DNA of 54,411 bases, filler included, from Sluysia triapertura (taxonomy: Eukaryota): the NCBI GenBank assembly GCA_046118255.1. It is 4 parts of 4 records of this genome, joined end to end, with 100 filler letters (N's around TTAATTAATTAA, not from the genome) between each part and the next. Parts side by side here need not be neighbours in the genome. Positions count along the whole stretch, not along the records: positions 43,643 to 54,411 come from JBJNIA010193703.1; 3 more parts are not named here. One strand, given 5' to 3'. The notes below the pieces were generated by a model. That model ran no database searches and was not told where the DNA came from. It worked only from the letters and a program-made list of their open reading frames with translations. Below are positions 3,960 through 54,411 of the stretch, one piece after another. The position numbers were made by a program, and so were the translations under genes. Numbering within the stretch: position 1 is the stretch's first letter; each line of letters opens with the position of its first letter.

Positions 3960-5417
3960 TCGTAACACTATTATTAGTCCACCGAGTCGTCCTCATTGAG
4001 TAAATAGTCGTAGCGGAATAGGTAGTGAGAATTATTGTTACTTCGAAATTTCTTTGGATATAACAGCCGCAACTCGGGTGCTTCTCGATGATTCATTGAT
4101 GCAGTTGTTAAATTCGGAGTAATCGCTGGCAATTTGGTGAGCGGTGGATTAGTTGATGATGATATTTTAGTAGTTGTGATGATGATTATTTCAACGGTTT
4201 TACCAAATGTGGAATAGAAGTTAATGAAGAGATAGAAAAATAAGACAAAGAAGTAGAAGAAGGGGAAGAAGGGGAAGAAGGGGAAGAAGGGGAAGAAGGG
4301 GAAGAAGGGGAAGAAGGGGAAGAAGGGGAAGAAGAGGATGCAAGTTTTTGCTTTTTTAGAGGAGTAAGTTTGGAATCAGAAGCAGGGGCAGTAGAATGAG
4401 GTTTCTTGAAAAGAACAGGTACAGGATTATTACAGCGAGAAATGAACTGCAAATCTCGCTCCCTTATATAGTCAAGCTGGGTCACCAATTGTGAGGTCAA
4501 CACTGGGCTAACAGGTAAAATTAGTCGCAATGTTTGACGTGTTCTAATAAAAGGATCGTCAGTGGCAAAAGGAACCAAATTAAGGTTCTACAAATTAATA
4601 ATCCCTCTCAGCAATCCAAATGGAATATTCAAGGCCTCAATAAGAAATATGCGCAAAATTCCTATCGATTGGGAGCGGACATCGTGATGTCCTTAGCCAA
4701 CCTAAGATCGACGTCCGGATCGTTTGGATGTTACGCCTAAAATTCTGGATACGACACCGAGGTTTGATACGAGCCTCAGTATGAAAATGACGACTGTACG
4801 GAGTACAGGTCACACAAATTAACTGAGTGTTATTTAGGAGATCCGTGGCGTATTGAAAAGCTACAAGCACAAGTCTATCCTCATCATACGCAGAAAGAGG
4901 CGGAACGTGCGTGTGAAGAGCCGCCTTCCCATCGACTTACATTGTCGAAATCCTTTGCGAATGGAAAGAAAGAGGGAGCAAAAGAGGGTTGGACGGCAGA
5001 ACAAAAAGAAAATCAAGATGAGTTGGGAATTCAAGGGCTTCTCCCATAACTTTACAAGCCTTAGTCAAGTTTGAGAGATGAAGAGTCGAGTGATTCTCTA
5101 AATACAATAATAATGGGATTCCCTCGACCTCTAGAGTGATCTTACCTGCGCCCCGCTCAGATACTACATACATCGTATTAAAGTAGTCAGGCGCATTGGT
5201 TAGCCCCTGCAAAGAAATAAAGGGCAGCTCCGATGATAGAGCAAAGATGTCGGTTGCCACGTTATCAGTTAATTCGGTCTTTAGCTTACAGTCCGTGGTA
5301 AATGAGTTAGGAAAGAATTTAGGGGTATGATTTTCGACACAGAACCTATCGAGAGAAGAATATAAGATTTTGATCTAGCTGATTGTTCTGGCCTGGGGTG
5401 TTTTGACTCGATGTGTG
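3960..5417 (-). pseudogene. Unknown-domain protein, copy 2 (frameshifted, in-frame stops), with Ser/Pro-rich C-terminal tail
   Basis: ORF pieces 4937-5260, 4637-4870 and 4186-4578 are collinear homologues of 5603-6737 (PQAR..SLDRFC..P.FFPNSF..DC.LK.ELT; EALE[FY]PT; EAR[IV]KPRCRI.NF.RNIQ; TDD.FIR.RQTL; LDY[IV]RERD). Confidence 0.75.
4258..4333. repeat. (GAAGGGGAA)x8 pure-purine tandem repeat, encoding (SSP)n on the minus strand
   Basis: Read directly: eight GGGG runs at 9-nt spacing. Confidence 0.95.
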
Positions 5418-5517
5418 CTGGATTACGAAAATAAAATTTAAAATTTACTGTGAGATTTTCGCTTAGGAGGTTGGGGCTTGGTGTAGATGTTGATGATATC
5501 TGCGCTGATGAGGTTGT

Positions 5518-6737
5518 CTATTGTTGGTCATTACTTGTGGTAGCAGAAGATGATGGTAACGGCTCTGGTGATTGTTTTTTTATGGCATTGTGGTTTAATT
5601 GTTCATTCAGAAGGTAAAGATTTAATAGAGGATTTTTTAGAAGAAAAAAGAAAAGGCGGAAGATCATTGCAACGCTGTATAAAAGTAGTATCCCTCTCTC
5701 TAACATAGTCTAAAACAGTTACTAACTCTGACGCCAATTGTTTACAAGAGAATTTTAGGCATACGGGATAGACAAGTTTCAAAGTTTGTCGTGCCCGTAT
5801 AAAAATATCGTCAGTGGAATAAGAAATGAGGTTGTGATTGGACAAGTTCATCACACCTCGCAACCATCCAAACGGGATATCAAATGCCTCTATTATAAAA
5901 CGAGGGTGAAGGGAAACTAAAATTTTATTATTCAGGAACCCAAAAAGATATAGCCGGACATCGTCTATGTCCTTGGCCTCCCTAAGCTCAATATGAGAAA
6001 TATCCTGAATATTTCTCAAAAAATTTTTGATTCTACACCGGGGTTTAACCCTTGCCTCCAAATGAAATTGGCGATTATAGGGTGTGCAGGCTATCCCCGT
6101 GAGGTGAGGCTTATCAAAGAAATCGAAGGCATATTGATATGCCACAAAACAAGACGATCTTCGCCTTCAGCAGAATGGGTGGAACATGGGTGAATGATGT
6201 CCCACTGTTCCAACGATTCATGTTCGAGGAGTCCCCGGAAAAAGGGTTTGAAAGTGAGGAAGGAAAAGGAGCTGGAGGCAAAACGAAAAGGAGGGCAATT
6301 GAAGTTGGATATTCCAGAGCTTCAATGTTGATATCGCAATGAACATTTAAGGCTGAAAAAAGAATAGTGGATGGGCCCTCTAAACGCAAAAGCAATGGGG
6401 AATTTTTAACAGAAAGGATGACTTTTACGACGCCGCGTGCTATGGCTAAGTAAATGGTGTCGAAATTTTCGTGTATTTCTGACAAACCCTTTAAAGAGAT
6501 TTTCAGATTAGCTGGGATTAAGAGGAAAACGTTGGTTGCTAAATTTTGGGTTAATTCACTTTTCAACCTACAATCCATTGAAAAGGAATTAGGAAAAAAT
6601 GTGGGAGCGTTCTTATCTGCGCAAAAACGATCAAGGGAAATGTAAAATGATTTTAACTGTGAGGTGATGCGTGCCTGTGGAAGTTGAGATTGGGGTTGTT
6701 GTTGTTTTTTTTGAGATTGAGTAGTTCTTGATATTAA
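5518..6737 (-). pseudogene. Unknown-domain protein, copy 1 (~400 aa when frameshifts near 6140-6175 are bridged)
   Basis: ORFs 6114-6770 and 5603-6145 join through frameshifts (THVPP/..EDRLV/VAYQYA) where copy 2 reads THVPPLSAYDEDRLVLVAFQYA. Visibly more GC-rich than the flanks. Confidence 0.75.
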
Positions 6738-6879
6738 CTGAAGATTAGGAATAAAAAGATAAGAGAACAAAATAAGAACAAATCATACAAAAAACAAAAT
6801 AAAAAAAAGAAAAATGGCAAAAAACAAGATTTTTTGTTTTTCCGTAAACGGTATTATAATAAATGATAATATTTATAGA

Positions 6880-7749: not shown

Positions 7750-10034
7750 TAAAAGGAAACACGTTGTAACATAATAAAAGAATATAGATTGATAGTCTTA
7801 ATATGATGTCCTCTGTGGAATTTCTACATTAGTAATTTTGAAATAGTAAACTTAAACTTTTATTTAACTTAGTAGTATGCGTTAGATTTTTAATATTCTG
7901 TACTGTACTTTTAGTGCTTGCAGTAGTAGTGGTAGTAATAATAGTTGGTGCTGAAGTAGTGACAATATCCTGTTCTCTTAATATTGGTACCATTAGATCA
8001 CATACTCTATATTCTGGCTAAAATCCAAGTGTGTCTTGGATTTCATTGTATCGCAAAATCAAAACCTCAATAAATTTAAGATTAGGTTCTGGTGCAAAAA
8101 ATAGATTCATGCTAATGTTCGGAAGAATTAATGCATAGTGTTGTTCTTTATCAAACATTTCATCGAAATCTTTCTTAGGTGGATCCTTTTTATCTATTTC
8201 GTGACCAATTATTATGGCATGTTCTATTAATGGATTTGTTATTCGTACAAAATTATTACTTCTTCTATACAGTGACATTGGAAATTTAATAGTTGCCGAC
8301 AAGTGACTAAAAATATAAGGTTTTTGTTCTAATTTTGTAGTTATGTAATGATATAACTTTCGAATTTTGATTTAATTCAAAATCAAATTCTAATTCTAGA
8401 GTAAGGTTAAATAACTGATTTTCTACAAGTTCATTACAAATCATTACTCGGTATTTTGTGTATTTACTAATGTCTGATCCGTATTTACACCATTTAGCCA
8501 AGCAACAACTCAAGGAGATATTAGTGATTTTTGCAATGTTGCTTTGTATTTTTGCATATATGGTTCGTTGAAGCGCTCTAAATGTAATTCGTGGTCTCAA
8601 TATTGATTTTACATTAAGTATGCACGTCAAATTTATATAGGCTTGTCATTTGCCAACCACCATACATTAATGGTTAATAATTACCTATTGCATATTCATA
8701 GACATGAGATGGTGCTATTTGAAATCCTGGTGGCTCAAGATTATTACTATGTGGAATAGTATATCGATCGTCATCATCATTATTCGGAGGTAAACATGGA
8801 TATCTACATTTGTTTGAAACAAACATGATGATTACCAGTATAACTATTGATAGAGCAATGATAAATAATGCAGCTAAAATTAATATTAGCAATGCTGGAT
8901 CATTTCTTAACATTTCTGACAATGACAGATATTTTCGAGTTCCTTTTAACGCAAATGTAACTGTTTTAATTTATCTGGTGCTACATATATCCTTCATTAG
9001 CTAATAAATCGGTACATATAGCAATAGGATTTACCAAATTATTAATATAATATTCCTTCACGTTCCAAGAACTAAAATTGAGTCGCGCCTGTTTAAGGCA
9101 CATAAATCTCACTTGAATGTCATTCTCCAATATTTTAACTCTTACTTCGGTATCATAATTTCGAAATTCGAGATATTCGGTTTTGTAGATTCGGACATCA
9201 TACATATTACATTGTATGGTGGTGATTATCATGAATAATATTAAAGGTATTAAATTTTTATTGACTGCGAATATACACGCCTTTCTACTGAAATCAATTA
9301 TATGTAGTATAATCCAAATTGCATATATTACTATGAGAATTACAGATATTGGAATCAGTTTATATATTAATGTAACGACACTGGATAACATATCGTTCGA
9401 TGGGTTATTATTACTTTTAAACTCAGATACACAATTATTCATAAATTTATTTGTAATATTTTGTACCCAACTTTGTACCTTTCTAGCATTTCGTTTATTA
9501 TCTAGCGCGAATGCTATTATCATTGGTCTATATTCGTATTGTAAGCAACGCGGGATTTTATTTATGTGATATGGTTTGCCTATCAATAATGGTTCTAGAT
9601 AAATGCAAATAGTTTAATAATATAATCAAACTTTTTTAATACTACAATGATTTATTAAATACATGAAAAATATACAAATTGTGATAGTAATAAACTTTAT
9701 AATAATTATAATGATTTTACCGACTTAATCCGAATGCTTAGCCGTATAAAAATTGTATTTTGGTTAAGATTTCAACCTAGCCAGTTACGGTTTAGGATCA
9801 ATAAAAAGATTTTGATTGTGTATTTTAAAGAACCTTATATTAAAATTAGGGTTGTATATGAAACTTAAAATAGATATTTACTTCTGCATGGAAAAATATT
9901 GTAATCCAAGGATCTGCTGAAGAATTATCGATACCAAAAATTTCCAGATTGATTGTGTTCACTTTTAATTCCATTTTTTTGTGTGTTTTGTAATTCCAAA
10001 TTAATATGTTTATACTGTTAATTTTATATAACAA
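7750..10034 (-). pseudogene. Decayed run of membrane/glycoprotein-like ORFs (ectodomain-TM-signal modules, Thr-rich stalk)
   Basis: Abutting ORFs 9846-10034, 8981-9586, 8674-8922, 8307-8630 and 8018-8302. Hydrophobic segments LIPISVILIVIYAIWIILHII, LIPLILFMIITTIQC and LLILILAALFIIALSIVILVIIMFV; VTTSAPTIITTTTTAST follows the stop at 8018. Confidence 0.55.
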
Positions 10035-24730: not shown

Positions 24731-25091
24731 GAAATTTATATTTTATTTCAATATTTTTTTTGTTTTATGTGATAATTATTCTAAAATTTTAAAATTGATT
24801 CATTTTATATTTTAATTAATTTTTTTCACTATTATTCTATTATTCTTCTTTTAAATAAATAGTAATTTAAAAAACAAATAAATGTAAAAAGAATTTTTAT
24901 ATATTTTCTGTTTTTATTTTATTTTTAAGATAATATTATTTACACGTTTAGTGTAAATATTGACTATCAAAGTGAATGGATCATTTTTAAAATTAAATTT
25001 AACCAATCACATTAAAGAACCAATTATATTATTAGAGTGTATAGTTTTTTAATACCCTAGTAATCTATATTAAAATAAAGAAAAAATTATC

Positions 25092-25431
25092 ATGTTAGAC
25101 AGTACAAAAATGAATATATTAACAAATAATACTATTATTGTACATAATGTATTACAAGAATTTTATTATAAACCTTTATCTACATTTCAATTGTCATACG
25201 TTGTTATATGTGGTTTAATAATAATACTGTCATTGTTGGGTAATGGTTTGGTGATTTTGTTGACAATAAAATACAAACGAATGAGAATGTCGAAAAATAT
25301 TTGTTTACTAAACCTGTCTATTGCTGATCTAGGTGTTACATGTATTTGTATGCCAAGTGAGTTATGTAGATCTATATATACATTTTGGATTCTTGGCAGT
25401 GTATTATGTAAGGTATCTTATTATGCTCAAG
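25092..25431 (+). CDS. Rhodopsin-family (class A) neuropeptide-type GPCR, first coding exon (N-terminus to start of TM3)
   Basis: TM1 LSLLGNGLVI, TM2 LLNLSIADLGVTCICMP, ECL1 WILGSVLCK; phase-1 donor G|GTTAGA at 25432. Downstream exons were not found in this contig. Confidence 0.85.
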
Positions 25432-25443
25432 GTTAGAATTTCA

Positions 25444-38820: not shown

Positions 38821-39515
38821 TTATTCGAATAAACAAACTGCTTGACCGTTGATACAGGCAGCAATAGGTCCGCCAGCGGCAAACAATTTCGTATATGATG
38901 GGTCGTATTCGTGTGTGTATATAGCGGTGTGTGGGTGAATGCCAAGGCTGGCGCGTGTAATATCGGAAATAGGCTCCACAGTTCCCTTTACGAACAATTG
39001 CGCGTATCGACTCGGGTTAAAGTATGTAAAGCTACTATTACTTCCACTACTAGTACTGCTGCCGATATGTGATTGAAAGTTGACATCTTGTAGGTTAGAT
39101 AAAGATCTTGTACGATAAATGCAGTCGTTATTGAAACAACTTGATACTTCGTCGTCAGTACAATTGTGATTGGTAGAAGTAAATCGACAAAGATGCCGAT
39201 TAACTCGCAGATCAAAAAAATTAATGTGACCTTCCGCGGTACCGTAGCTAATCACATAATCTTTGAACGCTAACGATCTGATACCAGCATTTGTGTGAAG
39301 CGCAAGAACATTGAGACATTCAGAGCTTGGAGATCCCAAATAATTGTTGACTGAAGCCGACACTGAAGGAGCAATACGTGTATCATAGATGGAAAAGCGA
39401 GCTTGACCACCCACAGCAAAACAAAAAGGTTGAGCTGGCCATTGTCGAATAGAAACCATATCTTGGACAACCGTTTTATATATCTAAACATTAAAATCTA
39501 TTAAATATTCCATTA

Positions 39516-39568
<53 letters not shown>

Positions 39569-40016
39569 TATTTTTATCATCGCCATATAATAATATAATA
39601 ACATAAGTCGGTTGAATATGATCCGTCAAATTCGTTACATCTATGGAATACAATTTATTTGACATTGTGGCGATTAGTAATTTTGAAGTGCTTGGTAAAT
39701 ATTCCATCGCTCGAAAACGATTGGATGGGTCAGACATACACATTTGTGCTGTGGGATTGCGTAGAACATTAATTAATTCGTCACTATCTATGTATACTGA
39801 GTCACTGTTGCCGCAGCTATTGGTACTGTTATCATCATTCCTACTGAGTGGTTTGCGTTGAGAATAACGTGAAAGACTCTGCCTAGTGTAATAAAACGGG
39901 AAATGGCCGGTATCGGGATTGATATGCCACATACCCATTTTGGAATCGCGAGAACATGTTGCTACGTGACTGTCGTCCAGCCAACATATGTCAAATATGG
40001 CATCTTGATGGAAATC
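38821..40016 (-). CDS. DCAF12: DDB1- and CUL4-associated factor 12 (WD40), last two coding exons (40016-39603, 39483-38821); 5' exons not found
   Basis: HQDAIFDICWLDDSHVATCSRDSKMGMW, GIRSLAF..ISYGTAEGHINFFDLR and C-terminal AIYTHEYDPSYTKLFAAGGP..G..CLFE* match the DCAF12 signature. A phase-0 GT-AG intron at 39484-39602 joins the exons in frame. Confidence 0.85.
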
Positions 40017-40079: not shown

Positions 40080-41200
40080 TTAAACGATTCAGAACGAACG
40101 ATTCGAATGGGATGACGATGGGACATTATTTTGTAGTAAACGGAATCGTCGAAAGATCTATTGAGGATAAAAATGATTAGAAGAGATTTACTTCGGCATT
40201 TGAAAAAAATACATAATTTATCAAATACTCAAATAACCAATGGAAAGATATACAGTGTTTCTCGATGAACGAACAAGTCATTGTAATGGAAGTTAGTAAA
40301 TTTCACGATAGATGAAATATCAGAGTGAATTTATAAGAAAGTCCGATATCATGAAGCTTATCTATAAAAGTTGTTTAAATTTCCAGCTTTAGAAAGAAGA
40401 GCACGAAATAGCTTGATGCTTGACGAGTACATAACTGCTTAAAAAAGCGATACTTGAAGATAAACCTTCATTTCAATAAAAGTAAACTCTGTAATTAGAT
40501 CTTTTCACAGGGAAACTATGTTGAAGCTCAACCAAGGGGAATCGAACTCACAACTAGAAATCAAGTAGTTACTCTTGCTATGAGCACATTGTGCGTACCT
40601 GATGGTCTATGATATTTGAAATAAATAAAATGACTGAAAATTTAACAAAGTATCAGCTTTAAAGAAGAAAGATCTAAACTAATAAATTAAACAATAAAAA
40701 ATAAGAGGTACTGAAAAATTATTCTCCAAAGCCATCTTTCAAAGATGTTTAAAAAATTAAATAAAAGCAGAGTTTACTTATGAAAATGTGATTATTTTTG
40801 ACATCAAAACTCGTTTTATTGAATAATGTGAAATCAAATGAGTTTCTTCAAGGGTCAACACTTGGTCGAATCATATATAGTAAATACCATAAATACCAAA
40901 TATATACTGAATTTGAAATGAACAACATAGAAAATACTATTCAAAGAACAGAAGAACTGGTATCTGATTTGATAAAATGGTTTGGAAATAAATACTTGAA
41001 AATCAATGAGGAAGTCATATTCAGTAATAAAGAAACAGCTAAACTTAATGTTCATTCATTGATAACTAACAACATAGATTTTAACAATAGAAAAGTGAAA
41101 AAATTGATATTTAATAATTAATCAAGCAGCAAGACTAATTCTCCAAGTGGGAAGAAGATCGTTTAAGGAATTACATTGGTTGCCAATAAAAGCAAGAATA
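40080..41200 (+). mobile_element. Degenerate non-LTR retrotransposon (CR1/L2-like): endonuclease and RT remnants
   Basis: RT-like VLLNNVKS..LQGSTLG..LVSDLIKWFGNKYLKINEE; upstream RKRARNSLMLDEYI resembles the AP-endonuclease C-terminal motif. Boundaries approximate. Confidence 0.6.
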
Positions 41201-46771: not shown

Positions 46772-47710
46772 CAGGGTTTTAACCTTGAATTTCGAATTTT
46801 TAAACAACAATTTTGAATTTTTTAAATCAAAGAATAAAAAGAGAAAATTAAACATTACAAACATACTAGACCACGAAATTTAAATTAATCAAAATCATTA
46901 CTAAATTTAATAATGGGCTCTTTAGTGATTGATATTAGAAACCACTACAATGTAATTAAACAGTTTTTCGTTTTTCGGTTTTTATCTGTCTAAAATACTT
47001 TTTCCATTTCAAAAAGTCATTTTCGATAGGATTCAAAAACGAAGAATATGGTGGTAAGTTCATAATTTTAAATCCTTTATTTTCGATTAAATTCTCAATC
47101 GCTGGAGACTTATGGAAGCGAACTTTATCTATTATGATAACAGAATTATTTCTTCCTTCTTCAATGAGATCTGTAAGTAGGTTTTCTAGAAATTCTTCAA
47201 AACTTGACGTATTATACAATTTTATACAATATATTTCTTGACCTTACATTTCTTACTTTGTGTGTAGCTCGAGAACCCTTTAAAGAACGACCATAGAGTG
47301 CATTAAAACCGATTTCATCAATAAAAATTATGTTAGATTCATCACTACTTCTATCTTGAGTATATTTAGCCTTCCCTTCAATATTCGCTGCATCATGTTC
47401 TAAAGAAATTCTTTATATATTTTGTTATTGTGACAATAGAAACATTCAAGTTTTTCCTTTTTTCAGTTTCGGTTCTGATAAAATCGATATGAACTTAGCT
47501 AAACATTTTTGAAACATATTACTTATGGAGTAAACTGTTGGTAGTTTTATGTGATATTTTTAAATATATTTCTATCAAAAATGCTTCAATTATTTTTTTC
47601 TTATTACATTGGAAACTTTCATTTTAAGGCTAAATTTCCTTTATTACAAATATAAGTGAGAAATATCAATTTTTTATTTTATAAAAATTCAAAATTACAA
47701 GTTAACAGAA
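46772..47710 (-). mobile_element. IS630/Tc1-like DDE transposon, decayed
   Basis: TA|CAGGGTTTTAACCTTGAATTTCGAATTT terminus with a degenerate inverse near 47680-47710; catalytic-region motifs NIIFIDEIGF, IIIDKVRFHKS and LPPYSSFLNPIE. Confidence 0.8.

Positions 47711-49264: not shown

Positions 49265-49313
<49 letters not shown>
49265..49313. repeat. (ATT)n microsatellite
   Basis: Read directly. Confidence 0.95.
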
Positions 49314-49314
<1 letters not shown>

Positions 49315-49917
49315 GAAAGAATCCGTCTTAGAAAATCACCACTGGTCATTCAGTCTATCAGTTCTTCAAGAAATTGGATTATTTTCTCACTTTTCACAAG
49401 ATCTATGGTTAATTTTTATTTTAACACAAGATTAGCCGTAAAGAATATTTCTCTGTATGTGAAATACATTATTTAGTTAAATTGAAAAGATTAATTTAAA
49501 ATAATTAAAAATTTAACTTTTAGTATTGAATATTTCTATAAAAATGCTAAATGTAAACATTTATCAATAATATAATTTATTTAATAATAATAGTTGAGTT
49601 AAAGGCAAAGATTGGTTCATTTAACTGGAATATATGATTTTGAGCGTTTTGATTGGTTGAAATACGGTAGTTTAGTGCGGACTGGTTGATTGTAGTGCAT
49701 CAGTTTTTAATTTGAATTTGATGTTAGTAAGTGGTAATACATTTTTTTATTTTTGTGTAATTTTATTCGAAATAATTTTATTTTGTGCATTAATGCTAAA
49801 GTGTTTACATGTTGACGAAAAAGTAGTTAATCAGAAAATGAGTCCAATGACATTACATGTCTTATAATATGCTACCACTTATATTCGTGTACCTATCCTG
49901 GTATTGTTTGTAAATAC

Positions 49918-49941
49918 ACGGGCCGCACTTTGACACCACTG
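49918..49941 (-). mobile_element. Single hAT terminal repeat
   Basis: CAGTGGTGTCAAAGTGCGGCCCG on the minus strand; other end not found. Confidence 0.5.
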
Positions 49942-50639
49942 ACCTATATAATGTAGACAATAATTTTATATATTTCGTTAGATGTTTCTACGGTTAGTTT
50001 GGTCTATGAAGGTATTATGCTCAATTCTGATCTAATCAGTACCTCTGTCATCGCTGTTGGAGAGTGAAGTTTGCCATTATTTTATTTTACATAATTATTA
50101 TAATTGAAATATTCTTAGATTTTCTTAAATCTGAAACAGTTTGTCTTACATAACTTGTTCTACTTCTTTTGTGGTAAAACTGCAGTCAAATGAAGTTAAC
50201 TTGTTTAGCTGTATGACAAAATCTTACATTAGTATATCGTTTTTTCAAGAATTATGATTGTTTGAATTATAATCAATATAAATTTGATTAAATTTAACTG
50301 CTCTCTGAATTTTACTATGAAGTACACCTAATATTGTTTATTTGTAAGAAACTCCAATGTTCGCGAATTAATATTAATTTTTTAACTGTTCAATCTAGAT
50401 TCAGGAACTAAAGGTCAGTCATTTATCTTATTCGGATTAAGTGATAGTAGATCATAACAGATGTTGATTAACTAATTCTAAAGATTGACTTTAACCACTT
50501 AAAATAAATTTATTTTTGAGGGCTACCAATACACAGAGTAAAATTGTACAAAATATGTATATAGCAAGTAAAATAACCTAGTAAAATTCCATTTTCAATT
50601 ACTAATACCAAATCCAAATTTAATACTAAATGTTAAAGC

Positions 50640-51000
50640 TAAGTTTTATATGTTATGCTAAGTCTTTGCTTAAATTTTATTTTCTTGTGCTGAGTCCTTT
50701 ACAATCTTAGACTTACTCACTTAAGGGCTAAGTTGTAAGCAGTATTTTAGAAGAACTTATATAGAGTTACAAGTATGCTTATTTTGAGTCAATTATATAT
50801 ATTCTGAGAAAGGTTTATCGTGGCTTATGCGGTATTTATTTTAGTCCTTTAAAAATTTTATCAAGTATTATGTTCAATCACAAATGACACTGAAACTCAA
50901 ATTACAACTATTATTTTAAGTGAAAAATTTGCAACCGTATATCAAAAACGGTGAACCTTAATTAATAATTTCTCTTTTAATTATAAATTACGTGTATTTT
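50640..51000 (-). repeat. Dispersed repeat downstream of the env-bearing element; candidate 3' LTR or UTR
   Basis: Homologous to 23330-23640; TG..CA ends and a polypurine tract were not resolved. Confidence 0.5.
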
Positions 51001-51489
51001 TCGACCGATTAAAATCAGCGATCTTTAAAAAACAAAATGAATTAAAATTAAATAAATTTAATGTAATGTATTATAGCAATTAACAAAAAATTAACAAGCG
51101 TAATAAATTTTACAAACGTATTTATATAATAACAAAATTTAAGTAAGATTAATATATCATCTTTAAAAATGGATTTTATGAAATGTTTTCACTTTTCTTA
51201 AAAAGGAATGTCAAATAATTTTTAAAAATATTTTGAGGAGAATTTTACGATCTGGTAAAACAGAATGACTTAAATCAATCAAACTAACGATCTTTTTTAT
51301 GTTAAAACTCTTGAGAACAGGAACAATCGCTGAAGTTATATCGGAAGAGCTGCGTGGACAAATTAAACTTTAAAAACCTATTGTATCCACCTTGTGTATT
51401 TATATTTTATTGTGTGGCCTTTGTGATCCAGTTGCAATTGACACTAATAATAATATAGTAAGTAATATTGTCTCGTCGAATATTATTAG

Positions 51490-52190
51490 TTCTTAAGATC
51501 CTATTACAAGTAATAATATAATAAATACTAAATAGCAAGTATATTATGGTAAAAAGAAATTTGTACTATCTTCATTCTTTTTCATTATTGTATTCGTACT
51601 TATTTCTTTATTTGTTGAACTTTCCAAAGCATGTTACTGTTGTTGTTGCTATTGAAGTTTACTTATAAAATTGTCCATTAAGTATGCGTGTAAAAAGTTA
51701 ACTGTTATCAATTTACTATCATAAAACGAAAATCCTATTATGGTAGTAAATTAGATTGAGTGTTCACATTGATAAATATCATCTATTAACAAAGGTTTCT
51801 TTATTAATAATGGTTTCCAATAGATGCAATTTCTATTTCTAAATTGTAATTAGATATTTCATTTCTGTCGTCTATTTCAACTGTACAAAATCGATTTAAA
51901 ATATTTGTTGGAAATATTGCTTGTTTCGTATCGATGTAACTTGTTAAGTTTACTTGATAATGCGTTATCATGGTTGTTAATTGAAATAGCAATAATATGA
52001 AAGTTATATAAAGAAATATATTATTTGGAATTCCTCTTATAAACATTACGCTGCTATTACTATTACTACTATTGTTAGTACTATTGTCATCATTATTATC
52101 TGTTCCTATACCTGAAGTCGAAGAAGCCGTGGTGTCCCACCAATCAAGATTTTCCCAATTTTGAGTTGGTGATGGTGGTATGATTGGATT
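51490..52190 (-). pseudogene. Accessory type-I membrane-like protein (Ser/Asn linker, hydrophobic signal, ectodomain, C-terminal TM)
   Basis: NPIIPPSPTQNW..NSSNSNSSV-MFIRGIPNNIFLYITFILLLFQL; after a frameshift NKKPLLIDDIYQCEHS..Q*QQQQ*H..YTCYLVFIILLLVIGS*. Confidence 0.5.
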
Positions 52191-52620
52191 TAATAAGTAA
52201 TTTGATAATTTTGTGGTAATGGTTGTACTGCTCTTGGTATTGAAGGTAAAACTAATTGTAGTAACACTACATGTGTACCTAAAGGTATTTTAAGGAATCC
52301 TAATCTTCCGTGTATTACTACATTTTCCAATTTACTTAATACATCCATACCTAATATAATTTCATAGGGGCATCTATCCCTAGCTAATATTGTTACAAAT
52401 AGATCCACATCTAATATTGTTAGTTGACATTGTAATATACCATTAAATAAGATATTTGAACCATCTACATCAGAGTCGTATGCCAGCTTGTTTTAATATA
52501 TAAATTTCTAATGCATTTAATGTATTATAATTAATAATAGTATTATTTGAACCTGTATCTATAACTGATCTTTCTCATCCTTGATTGAATTTAATACTTT
52601 GTATTAGATGGTTATATTTA
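52190..52620 (-). pseudogene. Second retropepsin-like aspartic protease
   Basis: SVIDTGSNNTII (DTG at 52551-52559), flap-like DVDGSNILFNG, and CPYEIILGMDVLSKL; interrupted by frameshifting. Confidence 0.8.
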
Positions 52621-52739
52621 TAGATGTTATCATATTTATTGAAATGATTGGTTTAGGTGGTTTGTCTCTATCTTTAGTTCTTGGTTTCACTTTTAGAATA
52701 CTTTTTGTAACTTTTCTATTTCTTAAATTATTCTTCCTT

Positions 52740-52935
52740 AGGTGCTAATTTGCAGCGATTTACATGTACGACAAGTTTCAGCATTTGTATCAGTTATATC
52801 CTTTAAATGATTTGTGTAATTTTGGAGAAAATCCTGGTTTAGAGGTATTGGTTAATCTACTAATATTTTATCTCCAACTTTGAAATTATGTTCTTTAGTT
52901 TTTTTTATCATAAGCATTTTATAAATTTTCTGAAT
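52740..52935 (-). pseudogene. Ty3/gypsy integrase C-terminal (GPY/F-region) remnant
   Basis: Bridging frameshifts: NAYDKK/TKEHNFKVGDKILV/KPGFSPKLHKSFKG/VVHVNRCKLAP. Confidence 0.7.
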
Positions 52936-53489
52936 CAAATTCTACAAACTGAGTCAGGTGTTCCTATATTTAATTTTCCTTGATTAATTTTTGAAGCAAT
53001 AAACATTATTGGATCATTTCTCAAACTTTTTGTTTTTCCTGGTATTATAGATTCGGTTCTACTAAGTAACCATCGAGGTTCTTCTAATATTACGTCATCA
53101 TCATCTATTGGTCTATCAGTATATGTATCCATTAATCTTGCTTTATTAAAATCTAATGAAACTCCTTTTAGTTGAGACAGTACATTCATGCCTAATATCA
53201 TATCTTCGTAGAATTTTCTCATTACTCTACATTTTATTTCAATTTTATTTTGTCCAATTTCACATAATATTTTTAATACTCCTAATATTTCAATTTCGTC
53301 TCCAGAAACTCCTGTAAGGTACGAATGTTGTTTAGCTAGATTATTAAGTTCTTTAGTAGTTAACAATGATTCACTTATTAAAGAAGCTACGGCTCCTGTG
53401 TCTACTAATGCAGATAACATACTTCCATTAACCCTCATATCTACCATAGGTCTTTTTGCACTATTATAGTTATTATTCGTACATATCAT
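52935..53489 (-). pseudogene. Retropepsin aspartic protease fused to a post-deletion fragment
   Basis: RPMVDMRVNGSMLSALVDTGAVASLIS, LTGVSGDEIEILG, DMILGMNVL; no RT motifs follow. Confidence 0.88.
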
Positions 53490-54411
53490 ATAAACTAAAT
53501 TTTTTGAAGGTTGATATAATACTTTTTTCTTCTTTAGTTTGTTCAGAATTACTTACTTGTTCTATGTTAATTGTTTGTAAAGCAATCTCTTCTGTTTGGT
53601 TTCTTTCTTTTTTCCAAGCATTTAGTTGAGCATGAGCATGATGATGTGATGAAAATTTAGCTAGAAACGGGAAGCACCCTAATATTAATTTCCACGTAAA
53701 TCTAGATATTTTAGAAATACCTACTACAGAAAATATTTGTGATATTAAAAGAGCAATATACCTATCAATCCAGAAAAAGTTTGCCCTATTACTAAGAAAT
53801 TTCTCCAAATTTGTTTTAGAGTATTATGTGCTGCCTTTTGAAAATGATCTGGTCCTAATAATAATTCAAAATTTAGTTTTCCATCTTTTTCTATAATTGC
53901 TTTATCAACGATATCGGTTAATACTTTTGATCTCTCAATTGGGAATAAAATTTCGTGCCAAGCTGCTTGTATATCTTCATTAGAATACATTCCTGATCTT
54001 GGAATATTTTTGGTAGCTGAGAATTTTAATTTAGATTTTAATTCTGTTAAACCAATAGTTTCTGGAATTTTAACTTGACTTCTATGCGATAAAGATATTC
54101 AAAGATTATCATCAATTTTATATTCTGGTGCCATTACATTAGAACAGTGTAGTGCTTCGGTTTAAATTTATTGGTTAGCATAATTATTCTCGTAAATAAG
54201 TATTTTGATTTTTATATACTACTGGCAATTCATTTGTACAATCATTTTCTTGTCTAATTTGAACTTCTACTTTTTTACATTTATATGTATATAAAACTTC
54301 ACCCATTAGTCTACCGAATACTCCTTCTTCTAACGGAAGTAATGGTGCTACTAAATCTGGGTTAGTTATTGCTATCGCTAATTTAGTTCTAAGTATTTCT
54401 TTATTTAGTTG
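53473..54411 (-). pseudogene. Chuvirus-like / herpes gB-type (class III) envelope glycoprotein, C-terminal portion
   Basis: Manual translation: QLNKEILRTKLAIAITNPD..GVFGRLMGEVLYTYKCKKVEVQIRQENDCTNELPV..TRII..CSNVMAPEYKI..SGMYSNEDIQAAWHEILFPIERSKVL..IWRNFLVIGQTFSGLIGI..TWKLILG. Matches in order the motifs I recall from chuviral-type glycoproteins (GEV....C..VEV..R....C..ELPV; SGIYS.ED......I.FP.E). Confidence 0.8.

Follow-up and report, generated by a model that had tools for sequence, protein, structure and literature searches.

A lineage of GAG-ENV-POL Ty3/gypsy retroelements was found in which the protease has been multiplied and relocated, with one of its sites directly after integrase, in departure from the textbook rule that LTR retroelements and retroviruses have a single protease, before reverse transcriptase (RT). 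The env-before-pol layout and plant elements with two proteases were already known; what is added here is an animal env-carrying lineage that repeatedly adds intact proteases, including after integrase, and in which Pol ends in a fused, predicted type I membrane protein. The element in the window (the whole 54,411-nt stretch of DNA from Sluysia triapertura analysed here) is a dead copy, so the value of the finding lies in the family and not in this locus. For annotators, a protease after integrase need not signal a nested insertion. The lineage also provides natural paralogous retropepsins for specificity studies, and raises the question of how a polyprotein crossing the membrane several times is processed.

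Organisation of the element in the window

The decayed element occupies the last 3 kb of the window on the minus strand, so that only the final ~3 kb of its coding sequence is included. At its upstream end is the C-terminal part of a gB/Monjiviricetes-type env (53578..54411, minus strand) with a TM segment and cytoplasmic tail, which is broken into three frames and runs past the window end. Two env pieces match the Pfam family PF24664 (Monjiviricetes_fusion; E 3.9e-16 and 2.3e-15), and in tblastn the pieces are 43-62% identical to the relatives P0002, P0004, P0006 and P0126 (P numbers denote proteins, L numbers metagenome loci). This glycoprotein, and not gag, lies directly upstream of the first protease; in relatives, gag domains are found 5′ of env (a zinc knuckle in P0002 and PF03732 in P0038). 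Because a gB/Monjiviricetes-type env lies upstream, the element is, by its sequence, probably a GAG-ENV-POL Ty3/gypsy element of the Burro/errantivirus-like kind.

The first protease (PR1; 53148..53450, minus strand) is a canonical retropepsin whose reading frame is open in the window copy. Its motif LVDTGAVASLI is present on the minus strand (D at 53402, DTG at 53402-53394), and the domain matches PF13975 (E 5.1e-11) and scores 82.9 bits with an independent protease profile. The flank downstream of PR1 matches, in tblastn, the corresponding flank of the pre-RT protease in P0004, P0011 and P0126, and alignments of P0011 and P0003 continue past the protease into the first ~60 codons of a PR-RT spacer (52962..53147, minus strand). 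The PR-RT spacer of Burro has been termed dUTPase-like (PMC6431247).

The spacer ends at an internal deletion junction (52961..52962). Pol cores of three relatives gave no tblastn match at E<=1 in the window for RT, RNase H or the integrase core, and 886-916 residues (~2.7 kb) of these relatives are unmatched there. In addition, all four listed contig pieces that arrive from the PR1 side (records 6, 10, 17 and 28) end at 52961-52963, three of them with 107-138 unmatched letters beyond. The join between PR1 and the integrase tail is therefore a deletion, which took out RT and RNase H together with the zinc finger and core of integrase, and because of which the order PR-RT-RH-IN-PR is unreadable from the window copy. 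PR precedes the integrase tail in the window, and the full PR-RT-RH-IN order is found in the closest relatives (P0004, P0006, P0011, P0126 and L006).

Beyond the junction lies the remnant of an integrase C-terminus (52740..52960, minus strand; GPY/F, SH3-like), spread over several frames and recovered by tblastn with P0064, P0004, P0011 and P0126. Its pieces are those of a GPY/F-type C-terminus, namely KKTKEHNFKVGDKILV (52905-52858), PGFSPKLHKSFKG (to 52799) and the terminal VVHVNRCKL (52772-52746; VHVNRCKL at 52769-52746), and a motif of the same VHVNRCKL type closes integrase in the four relatives just named. A basic Pro/Lys-rich linker (52611..52739, minus strand), read by translation and bridged by sibling contig records 5 and 27, leads to the second protease (PR2; 52313..52610, minus strand), with DTG at 52559-52551 and ILGMD at 52357-52343, its frame disrupted by a stop (52577-52575) and by a frameshift near 52495. 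With these two lesions and an internal deletion of ~2.7 kb of pol, the window copy, which belongs to a repetitive family, is dead. A Pro/Ser/Thr/Asn-rich spacer (52020..52312, minus strand), seen in translation and covered by sibling contig record 26 down to 52082, follows 3′ of PR2. No purine tract of at least 11 with at least 3 G was found in 49300-52350; the 5′ end of the element lies outside the window.

A second retropepsin after integrase

A preliminary description of this DNA had reported a second DTG...ILGMD retropepsin past the integrase motifs and a basic linker, clearly diverged from the first, and in these respects it was right. Both motifs are present letter for letter on the minus strand, and PR2 and PR1 are identical at 28 of 96 positions (29%; VIDTGSNNTII versus LVDTGAVASLI). 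PR2 has the D[TS]G motif after a hydrophobic strand (VIDTG at 52565-52551) and, ~70 residues on, the hydrophobic-hydrophobic-G-x-D motif (ILGMD), within a single lobe of ~100 residues, as read from profile and alignment. A profile derived from 47 protease domains in other proteins (window rows excluded) gives the halves of PR2 24.0 and 6.7 bits at the complementary profile positions 46-97 and 3-38, PR1 being the sole other notable match in the window. Since both halves outscore the top domain from 200 shuffled versions of the 3.5-kb region (3.7 bits), PR2 is not a chance match. When read with X at the breaks, it matches five aspartyl-protease Pfam families, all under the cut-off (best PF13975, E 2.4e-4, 22.1 versus 28.2 bits), and the domain at the same position in P0064 clears that cut-off (31.2 versus 28.2 bits). 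P0064 also aligns to the window in four colinear pieces from the integrase tail through PR2 (tblastn, E 7e-8). The catalytic D of PR2 lies 70 codons past the VH-NRCK motif of integrase, with 136 bases between this motif and PR2. PR2 is very probably a real, selected domain of the element.

A single frame for integrase and PR2, the subject of one suggested check, cannot be demonstrated in the window copy because of the stop and the frameshift, the latter leaving the halves of PR2 in different frames; in the relatives P0004, P0064 and L003, integrase and protease do share one.

Public contigs were aligned on 49400-54411, and the statements on siblings rest on 32 listed of 9,497 pieces. The integrase motif and linker are represented in record 27 (52599-52791, 17 differing letters), and the linker and PR2 in record 5 (52330-52655, 58 differing letters), while records 4 and 26 extend over 52266-52599 and 52082-52366; two listed joints also connect the linker with PR2. 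Sibling contigs that are 10-17% diverged, and so represent diverged copies and not the window's own locus, chain the integrase motif, linker, PR2 and spacer, with no single piece among the 32 listed of 9,497 spanning the 190 bases from integrase motif to DTG. Neither the absence of PR2 from siblings nor the flanks of a nested insertion, the two observations that the preliminary description had set against its own reading, was encountered: sibling contigs have PR2 beside the linker, and the short distance to the integrase motif is matched by a lack of gag, RT or LTR behind PR2.

In run X1, 8,004 contigs align on 49400-54411, a number in keeping with a repetitive family, although depth gives no copy number. 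Runs X2-X4 contain the same family at ~200-fold lower summed depth than X1; this signal may come from a related species or from carry-over, and for that reason these runs were not counted as independent hosts. Two intervals, 49736-50071 and 50576-50743, have high contig depth in run X1 only and are probably other repeats.

Intact relatives

A HMMER search with the window frame holding env, PR1 and half of PR2 returned 123 proteins, and a DNA scan of metagenomes with the integrase motif alone returned nine loci. Four of these loci, from three families, were real (L001 and L007 were counted as one family), while L002, L004, L005, L008 and L009 were dropped for want of pol similarity. Among the nine families with sequence beyond the integrase motif, three have an intact, in-frame post-integrase protease (P0004, P0064 and L003, the last with two), a count in which the protein search favours protease-rich matches; in the unbiased DNA scan alone the figure is one of three families. 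P0088, which has an integrase tail and no later protease, was left outside the count as no more than a possible member of the lineage.

One open frame of 2,855 aa in P0004 reads env, PR (851), zinc fingers, PR (1138), RT, RNase H, integrase, PR (2307), signal-like segment, ectodomain and TM. P0064 runs from the integrase core through the tail to a PR (356) at which three protease families exceed the Pfam cut-off, and L003 encodes integrase tail, PR, zinc finger, PR and signal in a single 733-aa frame. The layout of integrase followed by protease, part of the PR-RT-RH-IN-PR architecture for which a search of other genomes had been recommended, thus exists in one open frame in all three. P0064, L003 and L001/L007 were placed in the lineage by integrase similarity alone, env not being on their contigs. 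The catalytic D lies 62, 65 and 79 residues past the VH-NRCK motif in the three relatives, versus 70 codons in the window, and all four of their post-integrase domains retain D[TS]G and the hydrophobic-G-x-D motif. The domains of P0064, P0004 and the window are mutually 24-27% identical. Since the other six families (P0006, P0011, P0079, P0126, L001/L007 and L006) are without one, the post-integrase protease is optional and not required.

Word-index searches for longer proteins found none among 1,100 candidates with PR1 and none among 382 with the X-read PR2, and residues 225-450 of P0064 retrieved only P0064 itself among 164. Nothing was found in the viral contigs scanned, and the sole genome-contig match was a chance match in a bacterial genome. 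Three further observations concern the relatives themselves. In L003, an ORF for a hAT-like transposase with a BED finger (PF02892; L003:2339-4159) splits the element just upstream of the integrase tail. In L006, a 607-aa ORF without a Pfam match (L006:158-1981) directly follows the polyprotein stop. The database entry for P0006, an env-pol polyprotein of the lineage, gives it as a hypothetical protein from a bacterial MAG, which is probably contamination.

Extra proteases as a trait of the lineage

Two to four proteases are present in 8 of the 13 env-bearing proteins that reach a protease, in a set that is enriched by the query and in which P0005 and P0126 were counted once. P0002 has four, P0004 and P0007 have three, and P0013, P0038, P0061, P0120 and P0126 have two, and P0061 may be a tandem pol remnant. 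All but one of the extra domains in env-bearing proteins have D[TS]G, an outcome favoured by a profile seeded on DTG-bearing domains. In P0002, P0004, P0007, P0013, P0038 and P0126 the extras follow env and precede the pre-RT protease; an extra also precedes the pre-RT protease in P0011, which may be one element with P0002. Tandem copies stand 35-59 residues apart in P0002, P0007, P0013, P0038, P0120 and P0126, and arrays of two to five retropepsin-like domains occur in P0002 (1565-2217), P0039 (253-1247), P0007, P0013 and P0038. P0039 combines a gag zinc knuckle with five domains, three of them without D[TS]G, and has no env match. C2H2-like zinc fingers accompany one extra-protease lineage, before RT in P0004 (1020-1100) and after integrase in L003 (ORF residues ~295-325).

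In a protease tree of 27 rows, the extra protease behind env in P0004 joins the first post-integrase copy of L003 (97/90), and the post-integrase copy of P0004 joins the pre-RT extra of P0011 and the second copy of L003 (96/87). From these two starred branches it follows that both protease lineages occur before Pol in some elements and behind it in others. A single clade for the four post-integrase domains of the relatives was rejected (p-AU 0.028, formulated post hoc to the tree and with both L003 copies included), and one uniting window PR2 with the P0064 and P0004 post-integrase domains was not (p-AU 0.103). In the protease phylogeny, which had been called for, window PR2 is a long branch without a resolved place, nearest to canonical proteases (29-31%). 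For this reason, window PR2 need not share its origin or role with the other post-integrase copies. An integrase tree of 11 rows is poorly resolved (one of eight branches starred) and requires at least two changes in the presence of a post-integrase protease, and in a tree of env pieces one of 17 branches is starred.

The accessory membrane protein

In eight of the nine families the frame continues past integrase into a hydrophobic, signal-like segment, and in seven a second, TM-like segment follows, L003 being truncated by the contig end; in P0064 no hydrophobic segment was found in the 245 residues past the integrase motif. The six families without a post-integrase protease have the signal-like segment 50-82 residues past the motif in five cases and 533 in one, and in two of the three carriers the protease lies between integrase and this signal. 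A putative type I membrane protein, with a signal, a very variable ectodomain, a Thr-rich stalk and a TM, ends the polyprotein, in frame, in P0004, P0006, P0011, P0079, P0126, L001, L006 and L007. The post-integrase protease is thus located where integrase meets an accessory membrane protein that is encoded whether or not the protease is there. The ectodomains of the relatives showed no alignment among themselves or to the window, and no Pfam family was found for the accessory protein; fibronectin III is a weak lead (Atlas, scores 0.75, below 0.9), and fold prediction gave a pLDDT of 37.

In the window, a signal-peptide-like hydrophobic segment (51963..52019, minus strand; 17-residue hydropathy 2.11) is a candidate start of the accessory protein by its position and hydropathy, lying 250 codons past the integrase motif versus 227 in P0004. 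The broken stretch that follows (51430..51962, minus strand), with hydrophobic windows at 51537 and 51489, is a tentative candidate for the ectodomain and TM. Positions 51807-52289 have no Pfam match, and no sequence match was found between the accessory region of the window and the accessory proteins of relatives.

Possible roles of the extra proteases

The polyprotein of the lineage is ordered, in relatives, as env ectodomain, TM, protease, RT, RNase H, integrase, internal signal, accessory ectodomain and TM. With the env TM before Pol and an internal signal after it, the Pol block would be held between two membrane anchors. Spare protease domains have repeatedly been acquired at both ends of Pol and shifted from one end to the other, probably by template switching during reverse transcription. 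At these ends they would be gathered at the membrane, where they could release Pol. Retropepsins cut their own polyprotein as dimers, and the post-integrase copy would most likely form a normal aspartic protease dimer that acts in cis, together with the canonical protease or before it, to sever the integrase C-terminus from the accessory protein anchored by its signal. Taken as a whole, with its cis-processing role, this account of a duplicated, relocated element retropepsin that frees Pol from membrane anchors is the likeliest of those considered, although it seems to us evenly poised between right and wrong. The chief result against a needed role is that six of nine families share the signal-ectodomain-TM tail without a post-integrase protease, so that cleavage at the junction is within the reach of the canonical protease or of some host enzyme. 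P0064 also counts against the account, since its post-integrase protease is followed by no hydrophobic segment within the 245 residues past the integrase motif. The same result limits the earlier suggestion of a protease dedicated to a 3′ accessory polyprotein: PR2 does belong to the element and, in relatives, the accessory protein is part of the same polyprotein, whereas 'dedicated' in the sense of needed is contradicted by these six families and by extras that lie equally often before RT.

A bolder version, offered tentatively and with a modest chance of being right, is that the protease is a mobile, multipliable module, with up to four or more active retropepsins per polyprotein at both membrane-anchored ends of Pol, their diverged specificities staging processing or cutting host defence proteins. 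If true, the multi-protease polyproteins of RNA viruses would have their counterpart among retroelements, and the lineage would provide a natural series in which to follow how a dimeric retropepsin diversifies or turns into a tethered enzyme with two lobes.

Some RNA viruses have accessory proteases that cut host proteins, and by analogy an extra protease with changed specificity could cut host defence or apoptosis factors. The dispensability of the protease for the polyprotein layout (six of nine families) is compatible with such a target, as are copies that diverge from each other as much as those of different families and the presence of up to four intact copies per ORF (P0002), beyond the apparent need of simple processing. 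Burro has BIR, BCL2 and SUMO-like domains (as described in the accessible part of PMC6431247), and P0015 has a Bcl-2 match before env (E 9.6e-4). The extras nevertheless sit at the two ends of Pol and not in free accessory ORFs, and host cutting is on balance unlikely.

A distinctly unlikely alternative to processing at the membrane anchors is that the extras are nearly neutral by-products of template switching between similar protease-flanking sites, tolerated since a protease excises itself. Patchy presence, with the changes noted on the poorly resolved integrase tree, a number after integrase that varies from 0 to 2, and the several origins implied by the rejected single clade would all be expected of by-products. 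Less expected is that catalytic motifs are kept at 24-36% identity, in all four post-integrase domains and in all but one env-bearing extra, with the DTG-seeded profile favouring this outcome.

It is improbable that the additional copy regulates the canonical protease, pairing with PR1 as a heterodimer or as a tethered two-lobed enzyme and timing maturation in a polyprotein without a dose-limiting frameshift: retropepsins act as dimers and the tandem copies are close neighbours, but the post-integrase copy of P0004 is 1,070 residues from the canonical one. It is highly improbable that PR2 was left behind by an independent element, nested or tandem, or arose as a one-off chimera in a dead copy, and this reading is largely refuted: although PR2 is closer to canonical proteases than to the extra-protease group and the window copy has other rearrangements, only 136 bases separate it from the integrase motif, the window holds no RT or integrase core, diverged sibling contigs have the same neighbourhood, and a protease recurs at this offset in three intact ORFs that are unrelated.

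Comparison with known elements

Nematode NERV elements, attributed to Sacco et al. in 2022, reportedly have a continuous gag-env-pro-pol with env before pro-pol, and we know of no second protease in them. In the openly accessible text of the published literature no protease after integrase and no Ty3/gypsy protease array was found; prior annotation in repeat databases, figures or subscription journals is possible.

Chary and Hayashi (PMC13524379) describe GAG-ENV-POL errantiviruses with HSV/gB-type env from Nematoda, Bryozoa and Platyhelminthes. They resemble the present lineage in the gB/Monjiviricetes-type env before protease and pol and in the Ty3/gypsy integrase tail, whereas the accessible part of the article mentions only a single canonical protease and describes no extra protease or in-frame 3′ membrane protein (PMC13524379). 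Seven of its supplementary files, in which long cells are incomplete, contain no mention of a protease or retropepsin. Burro, an element of more than 30 kb from a planarian host, has an ORF of ~5,000 aa with BIR, BCL2, Smc and AIR1 cargo (PMC6431247). Burro/GYPSM1 shares with the lineage an in-frame env that precedes PR and is akin to the fusion proteins of mononegaviruses, a PR-RT spacer, a huge polyprotein with added domains, high copy number and decayed copies (Arkhipova and Yushenova, PMC6431247). The difference is that one PR is listed in the part of that article at hand, with cargo of BIR, MATH, Smc, AIR1, ankyrin and SUMO-like domains, in a comparison for which the 5′ part of the window element lies outside the window.

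The Wendovirus group of endogenous Caulimoviridae is likewise reverse-transcribing and has two aspartic protease domains, the second without known function (PMC9794742, available in part). Unlike the present elements, it is a plant pararetrovirus without integrase, with both proteases before RT in two separate ORFs, and its authors discard duplication (PMC9794742); in the window lineage the extras flank Pol on both sides within a single frame, with as many as four of them. In bdelloid LTR retrotransposons, ORF3 likewise encodes accessory proteins 3′ of integrase that are often bound to membranes, but as separate ORFs (env, GDSL esterase, DEDDy exonuclease and TM proteins), with no integrase-fused retropepsin in the accessible part of the source (PMC5408684).

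Surroundings of the element

The rest of the window is an AT-rich eukaryote genome with pieces of host genes, which make an animal host probable. A WD40 protein piece at 677-1633, which we take to be CIAO1-like, is accompanied by a rhodopsin-family GPCR piece (25074-25436) and a DCAF12-like propeller piece (38821-40016). An ORF block of 40% GC at 3974-6782 (minus strand, no Pfam match) looks by eye like two copies of one protein, and self-tblastn gave no off-diagonal match for this putative duplicate. At 7900-9613 (minus strand, no Pfam match), disrupted ORFs that contain TM segments and finish in a Thr-rich stretch are possibly a relic of another element; a likeness seen by eye between 9600-9540 and 51800-51760 was unsupported by self-tblastn. 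A possible non-LTR RT fragment was noted by eye alone at 40792-41121 (plus strand), and a DDE_3 transposase fragment is present at 46956-47243 (minus strand, E 4e-16).
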